The position numbers were made by a program, and so were the translations under genes. Of a DNA stretch of 48,585 nucleotides, positions 21,198 through 48,082 are shown piece after piece; position 1 is the first letter of the stretch; the number at the start of each line of letters is the position of its first letter. The stretch lies in IMG/VR virus record IMGVR_UViG_3300023065_000152, positions 1 to 48,585 of that record; one strand, written 5' to 3'. The notes beneath the pieces are model-generated. The model was not told the origin of the DNA, did no database searches, and saw only the letters and a list, made by a program, of their open reading frames with translations. Source of the DNA: a virus. Lineage: Duplodnaviria; Caudoviricetes.

Positions 21198-21466
21198 CCC
21201 ACCATAGCGCCACATCTTCGCTGCTTACCTGCATTAGCCATGACTGCAGTCCCTCCTTCTGCAAAAGCGTGCGGGTTATTCGAAAAAGATGATACCGCGT
21301 CACAGCATTGCGGGATGTCTGTGGCGTTCATAGCTGCCTTCTCAAGCAGTGGTAGAAGAATTGAGACTGCAATACAGAGCATTCTTTCGAGAATGTTCAA
21401 TATTGCAGCAACTTTTATGTGTGCGCCTACGGGCGGGATATTCACTTTTCAGCAGGAAATTCTATT

Positions 21467-21688
21467 ATGCCTACTCGTGTAATTGCTCAATCAGGTGCCA
21501 CTGCAGTAGTGGCTAATATGGATGATGTATCCAGTGGCGGTTATGTTCTGCCTGCAGCTACCACATCCACTCTGGGTGGAGTGAAGAAGATGGCAACTCA
21601 GGCCGACTCTACTGCAACTGATGTCGCTGGCCTGGTGGCTGACTTCAATGCTCTGCTGGCAAAAGCCCGCACTGCAGGTCTCATCTAA
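21467..21688 (+). CDS. Head-fibre-like small protein
   Basis: [14 protein letters not shown]...FNALLAK-x-R-x-AG motif; AGGA RBS. Confidence 0.65.
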
Positions 21689-22718: not shown

Positions 22719-24192
22719 GGCATTCAAGCGCCGCGCAATAGCAGAAGCCAGACAGTCACTGATGGGGTTTACGCTCTACACCAACCCGCTGTATGAGACA
22801 GGCTGGTTTAACGAATTGCTTTCTGCTGAGCTAGACCATTTCCTCGAAGAGGTTGAGGCAGGAAATATGCCGCGCCTGATGATATTCGCGCCTCCTCGTT
22901 CCGGGAAAAGTGAAAAAGCATCGCGTCGATTTCCCGCTTACGTGCTGGGAAAGCATCCTGACTGGAATGTGATCGCATGTTCATATTCTTCAGACCTTGC
23001 AAACCGCATGTCACGAGACACCCAACGCATAGTCGGCTCAAAGAAATACGCAGACGTATTCCCTGATACCGCATTGCCATCCGGGAGAACAGGAGCTGGA
23101 GGCGCTATCCGCACCGCTGAGCTATGGGAAGTGGTAAATGCCAATGGCGAACTGCATGGCGGCTCATATCGTGCTGCAGGCGTGAATGGCGGTATCACTG
23201 GCCAGGGTATGAACATCGGCATTATAGATGACCCTGCAAAAGACTATAAAACTGCCTCATCCCCAACGTACCAGGAATCAGTTATTGACTGGTATGACAC
23301 GACATTCTTTACGCGTGCTGACCCTAAAATTAACGGAATCATCATTATCCTTACGCGCTGGCATAAAGATGACCTTGCCGGTCAATTGCTGAAAAAGGCA
23401 GAGGAAGGCGGGGAACAGTGGCGGGTGGTTAGCTTCCCTATGGAGGCTGAGAAAGAAGAGACTCACGAACTGAATGGAAAAACCTACCTGTTACGCAAGC
23501 CAGGTGAAATTCTTTTCCCTGAGCGTATGCCTCAGGAGTTCGTAGATAAAGCCAAGCAGCGTGGCTCACTGGTATGGAACGCCCTTTATCAGCAGCGACC
23601 AACCGCCAAAGGTGGCGGACTCATCAAGTCTGAATGGTTCGGTGAATACCGTGAACTGCCGGTGATGAAGTTCAGGGCTGTGTATGGCGATACCGCGCAG
23701 AAGACCAAAGAGGCCAATGACTTCTCAGTGTTCGAGCACTGGGGGTTAGGCGTTGATGGTTACATGTACCTGATAGACATGATTCGCGGAAAATGGGAAG
23801 CCGATGAGCTGAAACGTCGAGCGGTAGCGTTCTGGTCTAAGTGCAAAATGCTCCGTAACGGGCCCCTGCGCCACATGGCAATCGAAGACAAGGCATCTGG
23901 TACCGGACTCATTCAAAGCATTCGCAAAGACGCCCTATGCCCCGTTAAAGCCATTCAGCGAGACAAGGACAAATACACTCGCCTGATGGATACCCAGGGC
24001 TATATCGAATCTGGCTACATCAAGCTTCCAGCCAATGCGGACTTCATCAACGACTTCCTGGTGGAAATGGAAGCGATCAACCCTGACTTTAACACACATG
24101 ATGACCAGCTCGACCCAATGATGGATGCCATCACCGAGATGAAGGGTAAAGCAGGCATCCTGTTCCATATTCCTGACGAGATACTCCAATGA
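22666..24192 (+). CDS. terL: Terminase large subunit
   Basis: Walker A APPRSGKS, Walker B IIDDP, TRWH, IEDKASG, HDDQLD. Confidence 0.95.
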   Translation: MVMADTDHSSLRNRQTLEAFKRRAIAEARQSLMGFTLYTNPLYETGWFNELLSAELDHFLEEVEAGNMPRLMIFAPPRSGKSEKASRRFPAYVLGKHPDWNVIACSYSSDLANRMSRDTQRIVGSKKYADVFPDTALPSGRTGAGGAIRTAELWEVVNANGELHGGSYRAAGVNGGITGQGMNIGIIDDPAKDYKTASSPTYQESVIDWYDTTFFTRADPKINGIIIILTRWHKDDLAGQLLKKAEEGGEQWRVVSFPMEAEKEETHELNGKTYLLRKPGEILFPERMPQEFVDKAKQRGSLVWNALYQQRPTAKGGGLIKSEWFGEYRELPVMKFRAVYGDTAQKTKEANDFSVFEHWGLGVDGYMYLIDMIRGKWEADELKRRAVAFWSKCKMLRNGPLRHMAIEDKASGTGLIQSIRKDALCPVKAIQRDKDKYTRLMDTQGYIESGYIKLPANADFINDFLVEMEAINPDFNTHDDQLDPMMDAITEMKGKAGILFHIPDEILQ

Positions 24193-25664
24193 CAAGACGC
24201 AACCAAACAGCGCAAACCACTCGGCAGGGGCCAGCAAAAATCACGCAGATGCATCTTGATAATGCCTCTGTAGCAAATGATGAGAAGCCGTTCGCTGAAT
24301 TTAAACGATATGAACCACTGCCCGGGGTAATCCCTGAGGCGAAGAAAGAAGCCACTCTGGCGATGGATTCAACGCCGTATGATGTGCTTAACAGCATGTC
24401 TATCGGCACAGAGTATTCAGGCTTCCGTGGTTACCCGATTCTGGCCGCCATGTCTCAGCAGGTAGAGTATGCGAACATGCATACCGTCATGGCTGACGAG
24501 ATGACGCGCAACTGGATTGAGATTAAAAGCCGCAAAGACGGCGACCCTGACATCGACCTGATGGAGCAGGCGCTCGTTAAGTACGATGTGAAGCGCTTAA
24601 TTCATGAAGCTGTGAAGCAGGACTCCATGTTTGGCGTGGCGCACATCTACGTTGACACAGGAGCGAGCGATACAGAGCTTGAGAAACCGCTCTTCCTCGA
24701 CCCTCGAAAGATTCCAAAGGGTTCTCTGAAAGGCCTGCGTTGCGTAGACCCAACATGGATTTATCCGGCGATGTACAACACTCGCTGGCCTCTGTCCGAT
24801 AACTACTACAAGCCGCAGGCATGGTTTGTTATGGGGCAGACGGTTCATGAGTCACGCTTCATCGACATTATCAGCCGGCCAGTTCCAGACATCCTCAAGC
24901 CATCCTATTCGTTCGGAGGCCTGTCACTGACTCAGTTGATGGAGGATTACGTTACTGACTGGCGTGATGCCAAGAAGAACGTTATCAAGATTCTCCGCAC
25001 GCTGCGCATGAGAGCACTGAAGACCGACATGGATGCTCGCCTTGCTGAGCCTGGTCAGTTCGATAAACGCATTAAGCTATTCACTCAGTTGCAGGACAAC
25101 CAGGGAATTTGGGCAATCGATAATGATGAAGACCTGCTCCACATGCAGACTTCTCTCAGCGAACTGTCCAACCTGCTGTCCAACTATCAGGACCAGATGT
25201 GTATCCCGGCGCGCATCACTAACCTGAAGCTCCTTGGGAACGCTCCAGCCGGTTTAAACGCATCAGGTGACTCAGAGCTTGAGACGTGGCATGAAACCAT
25301 CTCAGGGATGCAGGAACGCGATATACGCCGCGCTCTTGAGAACATCTTCAAGATTATTCAGCTCTCTGAGTTTGGTGAAATCAAGGAGGACATCTATTTC
25401 GAGTTCCGTCCACTGGATGAACTGAGCGAGAAAGAGAAGGCTGAGATTGCCAAGATTAAGGTCGAGACAGTAACTACCGCTGCTGACTCGCAACTGGTTA
25501 ACTCCGAAGAGGCTCGCGATGCACTGAAATGCATTGAAGGTGCAGGCTTCGAAAATCTGGATGGTGATTATGAACCGGAAGAAGACGAAGAGTCTGAAGC
25601 CAGTGAACTACAACGCGGGGAACATCAGGTGGTACCAGAAAGAGCTGCTCAGAACGATTCGTGA
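24189..25664 (+). CDS. Portal protein (DUF1073-like)
   Basis: Position after terL; VHESR, IPARITNLKLLGNAPAGLNASGDS, FEFRPL. Confidence 0.85.
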   Translation: MTRRNQTAQTTRQGPAKITQMHLDNASVANDEKPFAEFKRYEPLPGVIPEAKKEATLAMDSTPYDVLNSMSIGTEYSGFRGYPILAAMSQQVEYANMHTVMADEMTRNWIEIKSRKDGDPDIDLMEQALVKYDVKRLIHEAVKQDSMFGVAHIYVDTGASDTELEKPLFLDPRKIPKGSLKGLRCVDPTWIYPAMYNTRWPLSDNYYKPQAWFVMGQTVHESRFIDIISRPVPDILKPSYSFGGLSLTQLMEDYVTDWRDAKKNVIKILRTLRMRALKTDMDARLAEPGQFDKRIKLFTQLQDNQGIWAIDNDEDLLHMQTSLSELSNLLSNYQDQMCIPARITNLKLLGNAPAGLNASGDSELETWHETISGMQERDIRRALENIFKIIQLSEFGEIKEDIYFEFRPLDELSEKEKAEIAKIKVETVTTAADSQLVNSEEARDALKCIEGAGFENLDGDYEPEEDEESEASELQRGEHQVVPERAAQNDS

Positions 25665-26373
25665 AATGAACGATGACGTTAAGGCAGAGATAGTCACCAT
25701 CATGCGGGATAACCCGCTAGCGATGGATATGGCTATGGATGCTAACCCGGTTGACCTGGTGAAGCGTGCCATATCCTCACTGGCTAAGAAGTGGATAGAC
25801 AACTTCATCAGGAAGGCGATTCCGGTTTCCGATGAGGTGGCAGGTAAGACGCTAAAGGCAGTCGACCGTGGCATTCTCGCATCCGCCCGCAAAGATTCAC
25901 TGGTTATCAACCTGCAATGGACTGACGCCATGCTGCAAAAGCGTGACGCCATCATTGCTGAAAACGTGTCTCTGATTCGCTCGATACCTGAGAAATACTT
26001 CACCGAAGTGGAGTCGATGGTATTCAGGTCTATCGCCAAAGGTGGGGATCGCAAACAACTGGCTGATGAGATTGAGCGTGAATTTGGCAAGCGTCATGGA
26101 ATCACCAGACGCCGCGCAGAGTTCATTGCTCGCGACCAGGTGCGCAAGGCTACCAGTGCGCTATCAAATGCACGACAGCAGGCCGCAGGCATTAAGAAAG
26201 GCATCTGGCTGCACAGTGGCGGCGGCAATCAGCCACGACACAAACATGTGCAGGCTAACGGCAAAGAGTTCTACCTCGACAAGGGATTGCCAATTGGCGA
26301 CAAAGGCCAGTATGTGCTGCCTGGTGAGGAGCCAAACTGCGGTTGCACGTGGAAGCCGGTGCTGCCATTCTGA
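25570..26373 (+). CDS. MuF (SPP1 gp7-like) head morphogenesis protein, short form
   Basis: RRAEFIARDQ...WLHS...RHKH...PGEEPNCGC; no C-terminal toxin extension. Confidence 0.88.
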   Translation: MNRKKTKSLKPVNYNAGNIRWYQKELLRTIREMNDDVKAEIVTIMRDNPLAMDMAMDANPVDLVKRAISSLAKKWIDNFIRKAIPVSDEVAGKTLKAVDRGILASARKDSLVINLQWTDAMLQKRDAIIAENVSLIRSIPEKYFTEVESMVFRSIAKGGDRKQLADEIEREFGKRHGITRRRAEFIARDQVRKATSALSNARQQAAGIKKGIWLHSGGGNQPRHKHVQANGKEFYLDKGLPIGDKGQYVLPGEEPNCGCTWKPVLPF

Positions 26374-26419: not shown

Positions 26420-26584
26420 ATGACCGATAAAACAGAGCGAGAACTGATATCTCTCCTTGATGAATTACTGGAGAAAGGCGACTTCTTTCATTCTGCCATT
26501 GAGCAAAACGATCTGATGTTTGATTTCGAAAAGTGGAAAGAAAGAGTGCTAGTTGCTTTGGAAGAAGCTAAATCTAGACGTTAA
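26420..26584 (+). CDS. Small moron-like ORF (54 aa; not in ORF track)
   Basis: Hand translation MTDKTERELISLLDELLEKGDFFHSAIEQNDLMFDFEKWKERVLVALEEAKSRR; AT-rich; followed by a terminator. Confidence 0.55.
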   Translation: MTDKTERELISLLDELLEKGDFFHSAIEQNDLMFDFEKWKERVLVALEEAKSRR

Positions 26585-26601
26585 AGAAACAAATTAAACA
26601 T

Positions 26602-26630
26602 AAGGCTGCCTTCTGGTGGCCTTTTTTATT
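26602..26630 (+). terminator. Rho-independent terminator within the head cluster
   Basis: AAGGCTGCC-TTCT-GGTGGCCTT plus T-run. Confidence 0.75.
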
Positions 26631-26650: not shown

Positions 26651-28522
26651 ATGCCAGTACATCAAAAAGACGGCAAGTGGTATTTGGGTTCGAAAGGGCC
26701 ATTCGATACACAGGAAAAAGCCGAAGAAGTAGAGCGAGCGGCATACGCGAACGGCTATGCAGGAGATGAGGCTGAAATATATACGCTTGCAAATGATGCA
26801 GATGAGAAAGACAAGTGGATAACCATTAATGGAGCGCACGTAAAAGTAAATGGTAACGGCGAAGTAACAGCCGGTGCGGAAGGAAAAATTAAAAAGGTAT
26901 CACCAAGTAAAGTCTCCGGCAGTGCAAAGCTCTCACCAAACGAAAAGTCAGCAATTTCGAGTTACTCAGGCGACAACTTCCTCAAGCTTAATTCTGAATT
27001 AAGGAGCGGAAACACATCCGATCCTGACATCTCACGCATTGACTCAGCAGTTTCAAAGGGTCAACTCAGCGGAGAAACCCTATACCGAGGAATTAGTAGA
27101 GAGGATGCAAAAAAACTATTCCCCAATGGTGAGATCAAAAAGGGAATGGTCGTTTCCGATAAAGCATTCCTCTCCACCTCAAAGGAAAAGAAAATCGCCG
27201 GGATGTTCAGTATTGGCGGTGTAATGCTTGAGATTGACACCGAAGAAGGGGCTGCTGGTCTCGATGTCACTGGCATGTCCAGTAATAAGCATGAGAGTGA
27301 AACTCTTCTGCCAAGGGATGCAAAGCTAGAAGTTTCGAGCATCCACCCTCCAAAACAACCAGGGCAGCCAGTGGTTGTAAAAATGAAATATTCAAAACAA
27401 GAGCCAGATATGGCAAGGGACTCTGCATTCGCATTCGACAGGGCAAGCGTGCGCACCTATGACGCGGACGGAAAGCTTCACGTAGAGCTAACCCCAATCA
27501 GCAAGGCTAACATCTGCGTCTACTACGGGCGCGAGATTCCAGGCTGCGATGACTTGGGACTCATTCCTGACAAAGCATATCGCCTGCTGCGTGACCCTGA
27601 AGAGCTGCGCAAGGCCGCAGACACATTCAACAACCAACCGCTGCTGAACACGCACATCGCCGTGTCAGTGCTTGACCCACCGAAAGAGGCAATCATCGGC
27701 TCAACCGGTGAAAGCGCGGAATTCGACGGCACCTACCTGAAAAACTCTCTCGTCATCTGGGATGTGAATTCCATCATCGGCGTGGAGAACAAGCAGCAGC
27801 GAGAAATTTCATCCTCATACCGCTACCGGCTAGATATGACCCCCGGCGAGTACGAGGGAGAGGCATACGATGGCGTCATGCGTGACATCGTTTGTAACCA
27901 CGTGGCAATCGTGCCATCGGGTCGTGCAGGCCCGGATGTATTTGTTTACGACTCACAACCGACAGGACTCAAACTGATGTCAAAAATCAAATCACTCATG
28001 ACTCTCATCCGGCCATATCTGGCTAACGATGAGAAGTCCGAAGAGGTAGAAAAGAAAGTCGAAGCCATCATCAAAGATGAAGACGAAGACAAGAAGAAAG
28101 CAGAAGACGAAATGTCCGAGGAAGAGAAGAAAAAACTCGCCGAGGACGAAGAGTCGGAGAAAGACAAAAAGGCTGAAGACGAAGCCGAAGAAGAGAAAAA
28201 AGAGAAAGAAAAAATGGCAAACGACAGCAAGTTAGCGATGGACGCAGCGGTTAAAGCCGTTGAGCAGCGCTTCATCGACCTGCGCAAAGCTGAGCGTGAT
28301 GTGCGCCCGGTAGTTGGAGAGCTGGCCTGTGATAGCGCAGAGGAAGTGTATCGCACCGCCCTGAAACAACTTGGCTGTGATGAGCACGCTTCAATCCCTG
28401 CCGCTGCACTGAGCTCTGTATTCAAAGCCTATGCACGCCAGCCGTCATCCATGGCTCAGGACTCCGCAGTTATCACCACGTCTTCTCGCGAAAACGTTAA
28501 AAACTTCTTTGAGGGCAAATAA
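26651..28522 (+). CDS. ADP-ribosyltransferase - DUF2213-type prohead protease - scaffold fusion protein
   Basis: ART motifs LYRG, FLSTS and HESETLLPR at about 26930-27390; protease ISKAN...YYGREI...EISSSY...[12 protein letters not shown]; acidic/Lys-rich scaffold tail. Confidence 0.85.
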
Positions 28523-28524
28523 CA

Positions 28525-29013
28525 ATGGCTTTCCAGACAAGTGTATCTGTTTACTCTGGCGTTGGTCAGGCTGGTCAGCCTGCTTCTAACAGCCCAATCA
28601 TTGCTGCTGCAGGCGGCCCAGGTGCATATCAGGCTGGCTCAAGCGGTCTGGTAATGGCCCGTTTCGCCTGGCGTGACGGCACTAACCCACTCCTGCTGAA
28701 CAACACCGGCACCGGCAAGCCTGTTGGCTTCGTCTACAACAACGCAAACGCCACGATCGGCTATCTGCAGAACTCCAGCATGACTATTCCTGCTGGCCGC
28801 GAAGCATCTCCGGTGGTTGGTGGTGACTTCTGGGCTCTGTCTGCAACTGACGCGACTGTAGGCCAGAAAGTATTTGCGGTACTGGCTGACGGCACACTTA
28901 AGACCGGCGCAGCTGGCGCAACCATCTCCGGTGCTGTTGAAACCGACTGGTACGTGGCTAGCCCTGCAACAACCGGCAATCTGTTAATCATCTCTACCTG
29001 GAGCAAAGCATAA
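28525..29013 (+). CDS. Head decoration / minor capsid protein
   Basis: Gly/Ala/Thr-rich 162 aa between protease and capsid; GDFW motif. Confidence 0.7.
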   Translation: MAFQTSVSVYSGVGQAGQPASNSPIIAAAGGPGAYQAGSSGLVMARFAWRDGTNPLLLNNTGTGKPVGFVYNNANATIGYLQNSSMTIPAGREASPVVGGDFWALSATDATVGQKVFAVLADGTLKTGAAGATISGAVETDWYVASPATTGNLLIISTWSKA

Positions 29014-30038
29014 TGCCTCAACTGACTCAGGCTGATTTCGCTGCCTTTAAAGCGGAAGCCGAATCTCGCGGCATTTACCTGCCTGCATCGGTAACTAAGT
29101 TTGCAATGGATGCCGACCCTCAGCCGGGTCTTGGCGCAAACGGCGGTATTCCTGCTGTAGTATCAACCTTCATCGACCCTGAAATCGTGCGCACTATCTT
29201 CGCTAAGCAGAAAGCGACAGAGATTCTGGGCGAGAAGAAAAAAGGCTCATGGGCTCAAGACACCATGATGATCCAGCGCGTTGAGCAATCCGGTGACGTT
29301 GTGGCGTATGACGACTACAGCGAGCAGGGTGCTAACCAGGTAACTTCCCGTTGGGAAAACCGTCAGGTGTTCCGCTACCAGACCATGGTTACCTATGGTG
29401 AGCTGGAGCAGGAACGTTATGGCCTGGCTATGCTGCCATACGTCGCAGAGAAGCAACGTGCTGCAGCGTGGACTCTGAACCAGGCGCAGAACAAATTCTA
29501 CTTCTACGGCGTATCTGGCCTGCTGAACTACGGCATCCTGAACGACCCATCACTGCCGACTCCGATCACCCCAGCAACTGTAGGAGGCGCGACCCTGTGG
29601 AAAGACAAGCAGGTTATCGACATCTACAACGATATCCTGGCGCTGTATGCAGACCTGATTGCTCGTACCAACGGCGCAGTAGGTGATGGTGTTGATATGG
29701 CCTCTCCTCTGGTGCTGGCAATGTCTCCAGCCGCATCTGTTTGGTTCAAAAAATCAAACGAAATCTTCGGTAACTCTGTCGAGAAGATGGTTAAAGACAC
29801 CTTCACGAACATTCGTATCGAAGTGGCTCCTCAGTACAGCACTGCGGCCGGTGAACTGGTGCAGATGTTCGTTGAGACCGCTCAGGGTCAGGATGCGGGT
29901 TACTGCGCATACAGCGAAAAACTGCGTGCTCATCCTGTCATCACCATGACCTCCAGCTGGAAGCAGAAACACTCCGGCACCACCTACGGCGCGGTTATTA
30001 CTCAGCCTTTCTTGTTTGCACAGATGCTGGGCGTTTAA
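29013..30038 (+). CDS. Major capsid protein (DUF2184/linocin-like HK97 fold)
   Basis: 341 aa; YFYG...YGILNDPSL; position in head cluster. Confidence 0.88.
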   Translation: MPQLTQADFAAFKAEAESRGIYLPASVTKFAMDADPQPGLGANGGIPAVVSTFIDPEIVRTIFAKQKATEILGEKKKGSWAQDTMMIQRVEQSGDVVAYDDYSEQGANQVTSRWENRQVFRYQTMVTYGELEQERYGLAMLPYVAEKQRAAAWTLNQAQNKFYFYGVSGLLNYGILNDPSLPTPITPATVGGATLWKDKQVIDIYNDILALYADLIARTNGAVGDGVDMASPLVLAMSPAASVWFKKSNEIFGNSVEKMVKDTFTNIRIEVAPQYSTAAGELVQMFVETAQGQDAGYCAYSEKLRAHPVITMTSSWKQKHSGTTYGAVITQPFLFAQMLGV

Positions 30039-42847: not shown

Positions 42848-45295
42848 ATGTCAATTTCAGACACCTTAAAAGCACAGAAGTACGCTTCGATTGCGGAGAT
42901 CGCCGCAGCGCAAAGTAAGCTATATGCAGACAAACTGGAAGCGGCTCCCGATTACGCAGCGCAGGCTGCAGCATCAGCAAACCTTGCCGCTACGTCAGCT
43001 TCACAAGCAGAGTCTGCATCATTAACTTCGGTATCAGCAGCCAACTCTGCAACAGCATCAGCAATTTCTGCCTCTAACTCAGCCGAAGCAGCAGGAGAGG
43101 CCGCTGCTGATGCAATTCAAAACTACGTAGATCAGAGTGTCAGGGTTCCTGGTTCTGAAACGGTTAACCCAGTTCCAGCGGCGTCATCAAGAGCGAACGC
43201 TGTGTTTCTCTGGGATGGCGCATCACAGCCCACAGGAAAGCTTCTTTCTGAATTTGCTACTCTGGATGGTACCGGAAAGATTCCGGTGTCCATGATCCCA
43301 TCTATCGCATTAACGGAGCCATTTGTAGTTAGCTCCCAGTCGGCCATGCTTGCGCTAAATGCCCAAGTAGGGGATATCGCAAAAAGGACTGATTTAGGCT
43401 ACTCATTCTGCCTTGCAACATTGCCACCATCTACACTGGCGAACTGGGTTCAGCTTACTGATGATGTCCTGGCTCAGCTTGGATTGTCATCTGGCGCAAC
43501 GATGGTTGGTGCTGTTGACGATAGCTCAAATCCTACAACCGTTCAGGGCGCACTAAACCTGAAGGCCTCCATTGCATCTCTTGCTGCATCGACCGGCGCA
43601 ACATTAATTGGAGCGACTAACAATGCAGGGGCAACCTCGACAGTTCAGTCAGTCTTAAATCTGAAGCTGGAGAAGACAGAGTTAGCTGCAAATGACGGTG
43701 AAAAGTTTATTGGCATCTGCCCTTCAATAGCCACCCTGCGCTTAACAGAGCCTACATCGAATGGTCAAAGGATTACCCTAAGGGAATATACAACTGGTAC
43801 CGGTTATGGTGGTGGTCAGTTCAGGGCTATTCTGTCCGCATCGACGTATACGGATAACGGCGGAACAATCATCAAAACTACCGCCGGTAATGCGTGGCTA
43901 CGAATTAACGCGGATGTTGTAAACCCTTTAATGTTTGGGGCCGTTCCTCGCGTTGACGACACAACGCCATCTGCCCACGCAGCTATAACCAATGCGCACA
44001 ATGCGGCTAGCGGAAAGCTTGATGGTTTGGGTCTGACTTATAACGTCACAGACGAAACCAACTTTGCCAGCAGCACTCCTAAAAACAATGAGGATATAAA
44101 GCTATACTGCATTCCTTCCTCGGCTGTTGGGAATATTTTGCGCGTACAGAATGCTTCCCACCGCGTTAACAGAATCACTATTTTTGGTAACTCAACGGAT
44201 GCGGCTATCGGGATTAACCATAGCAGCACTGCAACAAATGCAGTTATCGAAAACTGCAGAGTAACCAACACAGGTCGAAATGGAATTCTGGCGCAGGGAT
44301 ATGGTGTCAAAATCAGGAATAACTTCACTGATGGATGCGGCTATGCGGGGACTGGTAACTTTAGGTTATCTATTCAGGTGAACGAAGCAGAGCATTGCAT
44401 TATAGAAGGGAATCAGTGCACAAACTGTGTTTGGGGAATTTTGACCCGTAATGAAATTGGAGTTACTCAAGGTTTCTTCAATGTCATGCGGAACAACATA
44501 ATTGTTTCCAAGTCTGGAAACGTATCCGATGCTCAGGGGATATCCGCCGCAGCGCAAGTGCATCTATCAACCATAGGTAACATTGTGAGGAATTTCCCAA
44601 ACAATGGGATTGACCATCAAAACTGTTTTGGAATGATTATTTCAGATAATCAGATAGTTAGTTGTAATGATGGTGTATTTATAGGGGATCGCTCATGCGG
44701 AAGGATCTTAATAACAAACAACAATATAGATGGATGTGTAACTGGAGTCAGATTCTACAACCCTGCAGGAACGTCCTGGCCAGGGCAAACATTCTCAGAC
44801 GTAAGAATATGCGGAAATGTTATATTCCAGTCAACGACATATGGCATTTGGGTGCCTATGGGCGGGGAAAGCAGCTCAAACTGGCTCATAGAGGTTGATG
44901 ACAACCTTGTAGATGGTCAAGGAATCGGTGGTCGCGGTATTGTTATGAGCAGCGTAACTCAGGGAAGTTGTAGCGGGAATATGGTTAGACGTGTAGCGCA
45001 GCATGGTATTGATTTAAGCTCTTGCGATAACATGAGAGTTGTTAACAACACCATACTTGATGCTGGGTACGGAACCACCGCAACCTATAACGGAATCAAT
45101 GCCGCAACCTGTTCTAGACTTACTTTAACTGGAAACTCCGCAACTGGCGCTTCTATGGTATACGCAGTTAACGTGAGCGGCGGAAGTCAAAACATTGTCG
45201 ACTCAGTAATCAGCAGAAGCCTTAGCGGCTCAACAGCTGTGAACGTTACCAGCAGCACAGGAACGCTAACAGGAACTCTTCTGATTAAAGGGTAA
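42848..45295 (+). CDS. Tailspike / putative polysaccharide depolymerase (right-handed beta-helix)
   Basis: Ala-rich N-terminus, GGGQF and NPLMFGA motifs, then many I-x-x-N / G-I beta-helix repeats. Confidence 0.85.
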   Translation: MSISDTLKAQKYASIAEIAAAQSKLYADKLEAAPDYAAQAAASANLAATSASQAESASLTSVSAANSATASAISASNSAEAAGEAAADAIQNYVDQSVRVPGSETVNPVPAASSRANAVFLWDGASQPTGKLLSEFATLDGTGKIPVSMIPSIALTEPFVVSSQSAMLALNAQVGDIAKRTDLGYSFCLATLPPSTLANWVQLTDDVLAQLGLSSGATMVGAVDDSSNPTTVQGALNLKASIASLAASTGATLIGATNNAGATSTVQSVLNLKLEKTELAANDGEKFIGICPSIATLRLTEPTSNGQRITLREYTTGTGYGGGQFRAILSASTYTDNGGTIIKTTAGNAWLRINADVVNPLMFGAVPRVDDTTPSAHAAITNAHNAASGKLDGLGLTYNVTDETNFASSTPKNNEDIKLYCIPSSAVGNILRVQNASHRVNRITIFGNSTDAAIGINHSSTATNAVIENCRVTNTGRNGILAQGYGVKIRNNFTDGCGYAGTGNFRLSIQVNEAEHCIIEGNQCTNCVWGILTRNEIGVTQGFFNVMRNNIIVSKSGNVSDAQGISAAAQVHLSTIGNIVRNFPNNGIDHQNCFGMIISDNQIVSCNDGVFIGDRSCGRILITNNNIDGCVTGVRFYNPAGTSWPGQTFSDVRICGNVIFQSTTYGIWVPMGGESSSNWLIEVDDNLVDGQGIGGRGIVMSSVTQGSCSGNMVRRVAQHGIDLSSCDNMRVVNNTILDAGYGTTATYNGINAATCSRLTLTGNSATGASMVYAVNVSGGSQNIVDSVISRSLSGSTAVNVTSSTGTLTGTLLIKG

Positions 45296-45322: not shown

Positions 45323-46795
45323 TTAAAATTTAATATCAAACTGCTTATTCTTTTCGATATCCGGCTGAACCTTGATAGTAATATTCCTGTCTATCACGCC
45401 ATTTGATTTCAATGTCCAGGATATCTCCCTTCCTCTTGTTACTGGTATAGGCCAGTTATCTGCATCATTACTAAATGGAACGTACAGTGTCATCTCTCTC
45501 TTGTTTTCAGCTACTGCATTTTCAACTTGCGTTATCATATCCTGAGTAACTGCGTTGGCTTTATTGTATGTAAGGCCATTATTCTGCGGATATTTTAATG
45601 AATGATTCTGACTTGTGCAGGCGTTAACAAGTATCAACAATACAACAGGAGTTAAGTAAATGGCATAATTATGCTTCAGTAATGAAGCAATGCCAAATGA
45701 TGAAAGTACGATCATATACATCAGAACACCCCACATCACAACAGGCTTTCCTATGTACCCAGGGCTGGCTTTAGCACTTATCATTACCAAAGCTATGAAT
45801 ATGATAAGCATTGATATTAATGAGATTAAAACTAATCTGCATTTTTCTTCCTGGCTCATGACTGCTGATACACATGAAATCGCGCAAGCTACGAAGCCAA
45901 CAACAAGAACAACGATAAACACGCCACTCATCTGGGAAAGAAGACCGAAGGCATTGTGAATGGTTCCTGCAAAGTCCAGTGATGCCTTGCCCATCCTCTC
46001 TGCACGTCCGCCATTTGCTTCAAAGACAGTAGATATAACCCAAAGCACCAATACAGCAACATGCAGTGGATATGTTTTGACAGCGTTAACAATTTTGAAT
46101 CTGGAAGAGATTAATTCAATAAGAATTACCGAGCCACATGTCACCGCAAGAATAACGCTAGAGAAAATGTTGGAAAAGATGGAAAGATAAATCGAAAGAA
46201 TGATGAAGCCAGAAACAACCGGATTCGTCATCAGAATAGATTTAAGGTCTTTACCTTTTCTGAGAACATATAGCGTAACAGCGCCATTTAGAAGTGCCGG
46301 GAGAAGATAGTGGTAATAGCATGTTAAGTTCTGTTCCCAAAGCATGTATGTGCTTTTGCTATCGTTGAGAGTCCTGAACAGGCCAAACAAGCACAGGTAA
46401 TGAAAGAATGTGACAACAATGCCAGAATATAGCGAGCATCCCATTCGTTCAATGGCAAAAAGATAGAACTGTCTTAAATACACAACAACCATAACTGCAA
46501 TAAATGCTGCAGTGAAAAAAGTGACAGACTGAAGAAATGAGAGACCAATCGGCATTAGAGTAAAAGATGCCACGTTGATCAGAAGAGGGAAAGACACCTC
46601 TGGAACAACCTTGATTGGGTTGAAGCCATGCCACTCAGGCCATGCCTTTCTTCCCAGGGAAAGATTGTACCATTCATCACCTGTGAAAATTGTGGTCGGA
46701 TGGATGAACCCAAAAAATACGAAAACAGAAAGCAGCACAAAGAGATAGAATGACCATTCTATCTTGCAACCTTTAAATCCGCTAGACTCTAACAT
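45323..46795 (-). CDS. Serotype-specific O-antigen glucosyltransferase (GtrC-like polytopic membrane protein)
   Basis: Many TM segments, early DE motif (FTGDEW), low GC, third gene after gtrAB. Confidence 0.8.
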   Translation of the reverse strand: MLESSGFKGCKIEWSFYLFVLLSVFVFFGFIHPTTIFTGDEWYNLSLGRKAWPEWHGFNPIKVVPEVSFPLLINVASFTLMPIGLSFLQSVTFFTAAFIAVMVVVYLRQFYLFAIERMGCSLYSGIVVTFFHYLCLFGLFRTLNDSKSTYMLWEQNLTCYYHYLLPALLNGAVTLYVLRKGKDLKSILMTNPVVSGFIILSIYLSIFSNIFSSVILAVTCGSVILIELISSRFKIVNAVKTYPLHVAVLVLWVISTVFEANGGRAERMGKASLDFAGTIHNAFGLLSQMSGVFIVVLVVGFVACAISCVSAVMSQEEKCRLVLISLISMLIIFIALVMISAKASPGYIGKPVVMWGVLMYMIVLSSFGIASLLKHNYAIYLTPVVLLILVNACTSQNHSLKYPQNNGLTYNKANAVTQDMITQVENAVAENKREMTLYVPFSNDADNWPIPVTRGREISWTLKSNGVIDRNITIKVQPDIEKNKQFDIKF

Positions 46796-46811
46796 TACAT
46801 CCTCCCAAGAA

Positions 46812-47723
46812 TCATTTCTTCAAAACATATCGAGGTCGGTTCTTTACCTCAACATAAATCCTGCCAATGTACTCGCCCAGAACACCAATCCCAATCAACT
46901 GAACCCCACCAAGGAATAGTATTGATACCAGCATGGAAGGATATCCGCGAACCGGATTGCCGAATGCTAATGTGTCGACGATCATCCATGCGCCATATAC
47001 GAACGCCATGCTGGCAACGAATAAACCGATATAAGTCCACATGCGCAACGGGAACGTCGAAAAGCTTGTAATTCCTTCCAATGCCAAATTCCATAGCTTC
47101 CAGCCATTGAACTTGGTACTCCCGGCAACACGCTCCGCCCTTGCATATTCGACCACATCGGTACGGCCACCAACCCAGCTCAACACGCCTTTCATGAATA
47201 GATTACGCTCAGGCATGAGCTTGATATTCTCAACAACATCGCGAGACATCAGGCGGAAATCGCCGACGTTTTCCTCTATCTGTGGGTTACTGATTTTATT
47301 GTGGAGCTTATAGAACCATTCAGCAGTCTTGCGCTTCAGTCTTCCATCTGTAGAGCGGTCAGTGCGCTTAGCCAACACCATATCTGCACCAGCCTGCCAT
47401 TTCTCAATCAGGTGTGGAATTACCTCAATTGGGTCCTGCAGGTCAACGTCAATTGGTATTATTGCCTCGCCGGTTGCGTGGTCTAGCCCGGCAAACAGAG
47501 CTGGTTCTTTACCGAAGTTACGTGTGAATGACAATGGAACAACTAACGGGTCAGCAATAGCAAGCGCATTTATAATTGATTCTGTTGAGTCTTTACTGCC
47601 GTCATTGATGAAGATGATTTCAACATCATGCGGCTGCAGACCTTCAAATTCCCGCACAGTTTTATAGAAGATTGGAATGGCTTCCTCTTCATTAAACACT
47701 GGCACGACCAAAGAAATTTTCAT
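46812..47723 (-). CDS. gtrB: Bactoprenol glucosyltransferase
   Basis: [32 protein letters not shown], two C-terminal TMs. Confidence 0.96.
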
Positions 47724-48082
47724 TTCGCATCCCTAAAGACAATGAATTTTGAGTATATGAACCCGGCAACAAGACTGAACCCTGAGAACGCTATTAGGGT
47801 TACAATCGGCGGTGCACCAATCGCATCCGCGATGTACCCTGTCATTCCAGCCATGATGCACATAAATGAGACGAACGCTATATAACGCCCTGACGTTGCC
47901 TGTGACCTGAACGTCCATTTTGCGTTAGCGAAGAAACTAAACGTAACCGCAATACTGAATGCGATCACATTTGCTACGGCCTGAGTGGCTCCAAGAAAAT
48001 GCAGAAGCGCACCGAAGCATAACCAGTGCAGAGCGGTGTTAATCACGCCTACTGAAATGTAGCGACTAAATAACTTTAACAT
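47720..48082 (-). CDS. gtrA: Bactoprenol-glucose flippase
   Basis: [16 protein letters not shown]...[11 protein letters not shown]; 4 TMs. Confidence 0.95.

Follow-up and report, generated by a model that had tools for sequence, protein, structure and literature searches.

A predicted ADP-ribosyltransferase in an optional cassette at the N-terminus of a DUF2213 prohead protease of a temperate phage

The provirus and its head gene module

The window, that is, the whole stretch of DNA analysed (48,585 nucleotides), is a complete 48.6-kb provirus record (IMGVR_UViG_3300023065_000152), the nearest GenBank phage to which is Pantoea phage PA-1. The phage is classed as temperate from the integrase and CI-like repressor genes present in the window and from the listing of the record as a provirus; genes for a lambda-P-like replication protein, terminase, portal, MuF and minor and major capsid proteins were also identified. 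A Q-like antiterminator gene lies upstream of the late head operon, which holds an open reading frame (ORF) at 26651-28522 encoding an ADP-ribosyltransferase (ART) domain joined to a DUF2213 domain. This ORF occupies the prohead-protease position, between the portal and MuF genes and the capsid genes, and the next gene encodes a minor head protein. The portal (491 aa) and MuF (279 aa) genes are located at 24189-26373 on the plus strand, and both proteins have an N-proximal AMD motif and carry no cargo; MuF (25534-26373) is indeed short, as had been remarked from the sequence alone, and is without a C-terminal cargo. The major capsid protein (29013-30038, plus strand) contains F-A31-M-D33, a predicted propeptide cut site.

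The interval between the MuF and protease genes (26420-26623) contains an AT-rich 54-aa ORF (26420-26584) and a terminator-like hairpin (26602-26623), and in relatives it holds other small ORFs or none, making it a second variable slot. Upstream of the ART ORF no plus-strand promoter match was found, the terminator-like hairpin lying just ahead of the gene. The 54-aa ORF was considered as a possible ART immunity gene and rejected; since it is missing from the ART-bearing relative L021, no linked immunity gene is apparent. Soil 'metatranscriptome' runs containing the region were rejected as evidence of expression, because their contigs reach 234 kb with even coverage of regulatory, early and late genes, as expected if the libraries contain DNA; these runs may also be where the window itself came from.

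Elsewhere in the window, a small head-fibre gene (21419-21688) lies upstream of the terminase, and a beta-helix tail-spike-like gene (42848-45295) follows the tail fibre. On the minus strand (45323-48082), ORFs of 490 and 120 aa flank a glycosyltransferase family 2 gene (46812-47723, PF00535). This trio presumably resembles a gtr-type serotype-conversion cassette, the middle gene alone being identified. At another locus (L069) the MuF gene encodes 579 aa and, as judged by eye, seems to be split near its C-terminus by an intein-like insertion.

Architecture of the fusion protein

The ORF at 26651-28522 lies on the plus strand, as do the parts of it described below, encodes 623 aa and contains no internal stop. 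The ORF call and the Pfam matches bear out the sequence-only reading of a single protein with an N-terminal segment, an ART domain, a DUF2213-type protease and an acidic tail. A 39-aa leader (26651-26767), ending in A37-G-D39, is shared with alleles that lack a cargo and with distant backbones of the protease; it is itself mobile, has a cut-like site at its end, and occurs at two loci with cores 41-45% identical (L002, L017) and in a variant form at a third (L016). Next comes the optional cassette of 218 codons (26762-27415), which is missing from alleles with a 98-99% identical core. Near its start stands A47-N-D49 (26789-26797), a predicted cut site on the N-terminal side of the ART, with an Ala-x-Asp (AxD) motif at this place in 120 of 120 listed homologues, followed by a tag of about 25 aa with the pattern 'WIT..G.HV.V...G.V..G..GK' (26816-26890), which recurs before unrelated cargos. 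The ART domain itself extends over 26924-27361, and two further predicted cut sites, A255-R-D257 and A261-F-D263 (27413-27439), mark the boundary with the protease. From the comparison of these alleles, the ART is an insert behind a leader that is shared with cargo-less alleles, which refines the earlier picture of the locus.

The DUF2213 protease core occupies 27422-27961 (PF09979 match at aa 268-435, E 3.6e-44), and an acidic scaffold tail (27977-28522) with eight AxD sites (1.9 expected) completes the protein. The ART part is more AT-rich than the protease part, as first noticed by inspection, with a GC content of 44.5% for aa 40-253 (GC3 41%) against 55.4% for the protease core (GC3 65%).

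A Shine-Dalgarno-like AGGA and an in-frame ATG (M443) are present at 27964-27979, the AGGA lying 9 nt upstream of the ATG at 27977. Among 52 distinct homologue junctions, Met was present in 48, and a Shine-Dalgarno-like word preceded it in 38 of these 48, against 7 of 280 control ATGs within the core. It is therefore likely, on these sequence patterns, that the scaffold is mostly made without the ART as a separate protein from a conserved internal start, and the ART copy number should then follow the lower level of the protease rather than that of the scaffold. The earlier suggestion that the cargo rides on the protease/scaffold is corrected to this extent. A second candidate internal start, at M254, was rejected, no Shine-Dalgarno-like site being evident there.

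The ADP-ribosyltransferase domain

The Pfam family ADPrib_exo_Tox (PF03496) matches aa 92-237 with 60.7 bits, above the curated cut-off of 23.4 (E 1.5e-16), and PHROG 802 matches the ART part alone (aa 85-192, E 1.9e-8). The three R-S-E family motifs lie where they had been read from the sequence: LYRG with R146 (27080-27091), FLSTS with STS at residues 175-177 (27167-27181) and HESE, corresponding to E215-x-E217 (27290-27301). LYRG, STS and ExE are all present in 120/120 listed homologues. Members of this family have an Arg in strand 1, the STS motif and a catalytic Glu, with ExE marking those specific for arginine. Motifs and profile together support the assignment of the domain as a putatively intact ExE-type R-S-E ADP-ribosyltransferase, for which specificity for arginine is presumed. 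The solved structures closest by sequence are the bacterial toxins ExoT, ExoS, Vis, SpvB and a Tre1-type PAAR protein, these matches being weak and at family level (E about 2.9e-6 to 0.07), and a single-sequence model of the ART was of low confidence (pLDDT 39). Between the ART of the window and that of L021 there are 28 synonymous and two non-synonymous changes, giving a dN/dS of 0.017 for this one pair, while a second pair (with L028) was saturated at synonymous sites. By the comparison with L021, the ART is under purifying selection.

The join between ART and protease recurs widely. A search with the cassette (aa 40-255) yielded 524 proteins, the best 120 of which all combine PF09979 with PF03496; these 120 fusions are mostly from Klebsiella, and also from Citrobacter, Lelliottia, Hafnia and Phytobacter. 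Several lie on multi-megabase contigs (Lelliottia, Citrobacter, Hafnia, Phytobacter and Klebsiella), and contigs span the join without differences. The join is not an assembly artefact, because the best 120 of 524 proteins share the fusion and several of these are on multi-megabase contigs. One database record (P0291) already names the architecture of ART plus DUF2213. In E. coli, the protease part was present in 26 of 5426 complete genomes and a blastn match to the cassette in none.

The DUF2213 protease and its predicted cut motif

The model of the protease core (pLDDT 91.8) superimposes on T4 gp21 (5JBL; Z 10.7, rmsd 2.7, 128 residues aligned) and on herpesvirus assemblin (1VZV; Z 8.8, rmsd 2.6, 111 residues aligned), and the best Foldseek match to the core model had an E value of 3e-3. 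His335, Ser387 and Arg425 are invariant in 23/23 aligned cores, His and Ser being the candidate catalytic residues and putative counterparts of gp21 H85 and S140. The fold match together with the invariant His/Ser supports the prediction that DUF2213 is a prohead protease of the T4 gp21/assemblin fold, and agrees with what had been proposed for this part of the protein. Its only sequence relative in the PDB is Pa193 gp24 (E 1e-19), which its authors report detecting by LC-MS in mature virions; cryo-EM showed its residues 286-326, in the tail region and not at the N-terminus, bound inside the five-fold vertices (PMC11456595).

The distribution of the AxD motif suggests where this protease cuts. 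The protein of the window has 14 AxD motifs against 4.5 expected (0 of 10000 shuffles), with none in aa 61-245. Among 400 possible XxY pairs in 150 DUF2213 representatives, AxD ranked first in scaffold tails (1250 vs 615), third in N-terminal extensions and 89th in the core, and AxE was depleted in the tails; the z-scores of this enrichment overstate independence, because the representatives are related. AxD is present at the start of the core in 145/150 representatives, and within the first 75 aa of the capsid protein in 53 of 54 cases (shuffle mean 25.6, maximum 37). In the ART fusions the motif stands on both sides of the cassette in 120/120, and 108 have none inside it (12 do). Within Nudix cargos AxD is not depleted (40 vs 38.3 expected), the linkers behind these cargos are enriched (88 vs 50.6 in 46 proteins), and AxD precedes 14/32 Nudix domains. 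By eye, the T1-like DUF2213 protease and head proteins of Bas11 (L102) have RFD, KFD, KAD and EFD near their ends, not AxD, which hints at a subfamily-specific motif that keeps the Asp.

Cutting at such a motif is documented for phage KPP12, whose ORF21 is a DUF2213 protein. The N-terminus of its mature capsid protein was determined by Edman degradation as SNFTAPVTT (PMC3474789), and in the KPP12 capsid gene this sequence directly follows S-A-M-D64, so that a relative cuts after A-M-D; the cryo-EM capsid models of E217 and Pa193 start at residue 66. DUF2213 would then be the enzyme that makes the AxD cut, KPP12 being a distant relative whose paper does not attribute the cut to DUF2213. In keeping with the proposed release of the ART, the cassette is flanked by the predicted cut motif of the DUF2213 family. 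Cutting at every AxD outside the core would yield an ART fragment of 208 aa (aa 50-257; computed mass 22.2 kDa, pI 8.6), a protease of 21.9 kDa (aa 264-460) and peptides of less than 5 kDa, nearly all of them acidic. A likely cleavage motif (A-x-D, cut after D) can in this way be assigned to a large protease family that Pfam lists as uncharacterised.

Presence and absence of the cassette

Where the window has ANGY-AGD-cassette-ARD-SAFAFD, alleles whose core is 98-99% identical have ANGY-AKD-SAFAFD, a difference of 218 aa. Of 16 loci whose core identity is 90% or more, three carry the ART and 13 have nothing inserted at this AxD; two of the three are 100% identical to the window and so possibly not independent. 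On a Klebsiella-type backbone, 78 loci comprised 28 with ART, two with another cargo, 46 empty and two truncated (dropped); the two with other cargo (L125, L133) have the same N-terminal tag and a different domain without assignment. The notion that the protease N-terminus is an exchangeable slot was therefore upheld, since one backbone may be empty or carry an ART or another domain, and the N-terminal domain varies among homologues, with 13/16 close loci empty and Nudix, Acb1 and other domains found elsewhere.

On a tree of 51 hand-picked, de-duplicated cores, with rough bootstrap values, the ART label requires 14 changes, of which at least nine are forced by starred branches, and it is not clustered beyond shuffles (57/500 as low). 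The cassette of the most distant ART fusions shares 70-72% identity with that of the window, and their core 57-62%. The pattern fits repeated exchange, in which recombination would take place where the protease begins (the conserved AFDRASVR), and would be consistent with either gain or loss.

Other cargos, carriers and tags

A profile search gave 14293 DUF2213 representatives, the best-scoring 150 of which were examined; clustering at 50% identity means that cargo-bearing forms are over-counted among them. More than 100 aa precede the core in 95 of these 150. When these and six shorter ones were scanned (101 in total), 66 contained Nudix, two Acb1, one PBECR1, one LPD3 and two DUF5710 domains, and an ART was found in none. 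In the Acb1-DUF2213 fusions (P0254, P0265), an enzyme that counters CBASS is attached to a member of a family sensed by CBASS itself, and one further protein (P0292) has both Acb1 and ART.

The portal is a second carrier. In Pseudomonas phage Orisa03 the same ART clade is located at the C-terminus of the portal (54% identical) and the protease is bare. A search from the portal-type ART gave 12 matches, namely ten PF06381 portals, one DUF2213 protein and one PF06074 protein with Acb1. Among 509 candidates of 118-378 aa no standalone ART was found, the six matches all being partial or short forms. Other cargos at the portal C-terminus include InPase in E217 (L099:9124-11421) and unassigned domains behind an AxD plus an HPR tag at L013 and L015.

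Besides standing before the ART of the window, the WIT tag is found ahead of unrelated domains in phiAC-1, L125/L133, P0219, P0225, P0261, P0235 and P0174, several of these carriers having been seeds of the tag profile. L125 and L133 begin with the tag and have no upstream AxD. No match to the tag was found in Pfam, PHROG or the ESM Atlas, tblastn with the tag gave phiAC-1 as the sole convincing match among five records, and the cargo of L125 had no usable match in the ESM Atlas. WIT-tagged domains in the protease slot (L125:2995-3378, L098:4968-5474) are candidate new effectors. In the phiAC-1 record the protease is annotated from 5253, the N-terminal part having been missed. A second tag, F.E..HPR..G.F, is present in 20/150 DUF2213 representatives, 15 of them with AxD within 8 aa, and before the portal-type ART in all eight parsed matches (of 12), with AxD in seven. 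That the two post-cut tags serve as retention or ejection signals is a guess.

Proposed mechanism and alternative explanations

The reading to which we lean, by a modest degree, is one of delivery in the manner of T4 Alt, in which the ART reaches the prohead attached to the protease, is released by cleavage and, after ejection, ADP-ribosylates a host protein on arginine. The ART would be carried into the prohead covalently on the protease, which would cut after the Asp residues of AxD and so liberate the basic 208-aa fragment (aa 50-257). Being folded and basic, this fragment would be retained while acidic peptides leave, and would later be ejected with the DNA, so that host-protein arginines would be modified at an early stage of infection. 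In T4, cutting followed by ejection is described for Alt and for internal proteins of 20 kDa (PMC9026906). However, carriage by the protease does not ensure retention of the ART, because T4 gp21 numbers 72 copies in the prohead and three in the mature head (PMC9026906). The purpose would most likely be counter-defence; an essential role in takeover fits less well with a dispensable cassette, a temperate phage and alternative cargos that include Acb1 and Nudix. We infer, rather than observe, the cut by the protease, the retention and ejection of the ART, its arginine specificity and its target.

The chief rival explanation, possible though clearly less probable, is that the ART acts late in the producing cell, where the protease would free it in the cytoplasm or at the prohead, so that counter-defence is coupled in time and amount to an immune-sensed protein and nothing is delivered onward. 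In support of this, mutations in the prohead protease of the T1-like phage Bas11 allow escape from CBASS (bioRxiv 2023.05.21.541620), and this protease belongs to DUF2213 (E 4e-26); CBASS is triggered by the activity of prohead proteases, as shown for T4 gp21 (bioRxiv 2026.03.04.709575); and Acb1 is fused to DUF2213 in P0254 and P0265. Nevertheless, a purely late enzyme would need no head-interior carrier, whereas the same ART clade is mostly found on portal tails (10/12), behind AxD plus a tag (7/8 parsed), and no standalone form, save partial sequences, exists among the 509 candidates of similar length.

Distinctly less likely is that the ART is packaged and then stays or is degraded in the head, at most acting on virion components, with no benefit in the next cell. 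The absence of the ART from 13/16 close alleles and the extensive degradation of prohead proteases in T4 would be in keeping with such an outcome, but the strong purifying selection, with ExE in 120/120 listed homologues, and the repeated exchange across backbones (core 57-62%, cassette 70-72% identical) argue against it. It is very improbable that the ART is a toxin, expressed by the lysogen or released on lysis, that is directed at a eukaryotic host or at bacterial competitors. The solved structures closest to it in sequence are indeed bacterial toxins, yet they match weakly and at family level, and the gene, which forms part of the late head operon behind the Q-like antiterminator, has a hairpin upstream, no plus-strand promoter match and no linked immunity gene. 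That the join arose in assembly or is a chance fusion in decay, for which the GC contrast alone speaks, is refuted by hundreds of homologues (the best 120 of 524 all fused), join-bridging contigs and the dN/dS of 0.017.

Beyond delivery of the ART by this one phage, it may tentatively be proposed, with a good deal of doubt, that DUF2213 phages run a general modular delivery code, in which any domain behind an AxD on the protease or portal is released by the prohead protease, and one of the two tags that the cut exposes (WIT..G.HV or F.E..HPR..G.FG) retains the cargo in the head or steers it out with the DNA, the ART being one allele of a counter-defence slot common in enterobacterial prophages. 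The slot also offers a route to mine new anti-defence proteins, Acb1 being already there beside several uncharacterised domains. Packaging and injection of head-fused effectors have been proposed from genomics for years, and direct tests are now possible: what was a domain fusion in a database becomes a model open to experiment, with predicted cut points and with matched natural alleles that have or lack the cassette on almost identical backbones.

Comparison with known systems

The fusion of effectors to head proteins is already published in concept. Iyer et al. 2022 (PMC9503650) described Nudix domains fused to a capsid-processing serine peptidase as well as to MuF and portal, together with Alt/VIP2 ARTs carried by MuF or by head/portal proteins, and proposed packaging and injection for both; the present fusion follows the same principle. 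In the portion of that article covered, no ART on the peptidase, cleavage motif, allelic presence/absence or tags were found, and its figures and supplement may differ. Likewise, nothing on such fusions was found in the sections covered of a 2024 anti-defence survey and a 2026 editorial. Within a mostly open literature, whose figures and supplements may hold the architecture, no published ART-DUF2213 fusion, AxD motif, allelic slot or tags were found; the cleavage code, the allelic slot and the two recurring post-cut tags were accordingly not found in print.

A close parallel is T4 Alt, also an R-S-E ART, whose orthologues modify host RNA polymerase. T4 Alt is described as a non-essential component of the head core, targeted there by a CTS, processed by gp21, which has the fold of the present protease, and ejected (PMC9026906). 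T4 Alt is a separate protein (PHROG profile of 674 positions) in a system where propeptides are cut at I/L-x-E (PMC9026906), whereas the ART here is a domain of 22 kDa, covalently attached to the protease and bounded by A-x-D. MuF toxins, covered by Jamet et al. 2017 (PMC5576092) and Zhang 2012, share with the present system a temperate phage, a head module and a variable toxin-like domain, with ARTs among the cargos described (PMC5576092). Unlike in MuF toxins, the carrier here is the protease and the cargo is N-terminal, a MuF domain is absent from the ART protein and encoded by a short gene of its own, and no small immunity ORF lies downstream of the ART gene.

Pbunavirus gp24/ORF21 proteins (Pa193, E217, KPP12) and those of Drexlerviridae are likewise DUF2213 proteases with a scaffold tail at the same gene position, but have no N-terminal cargo, and E217 has its InPase cargo on the portal instead. 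Finally, polyvalent proteins, as described by Iyer et al. 2017 (PMC5512222), also place effector domains before an assemblin-like peptidase that is thought to process virion proteins. Their ART is of the H-Y-D clade and lies within a multi-effector polypeptide (PMC5512222), whereas the protein described here combines one R-S-E ART with a full scaffold tail.
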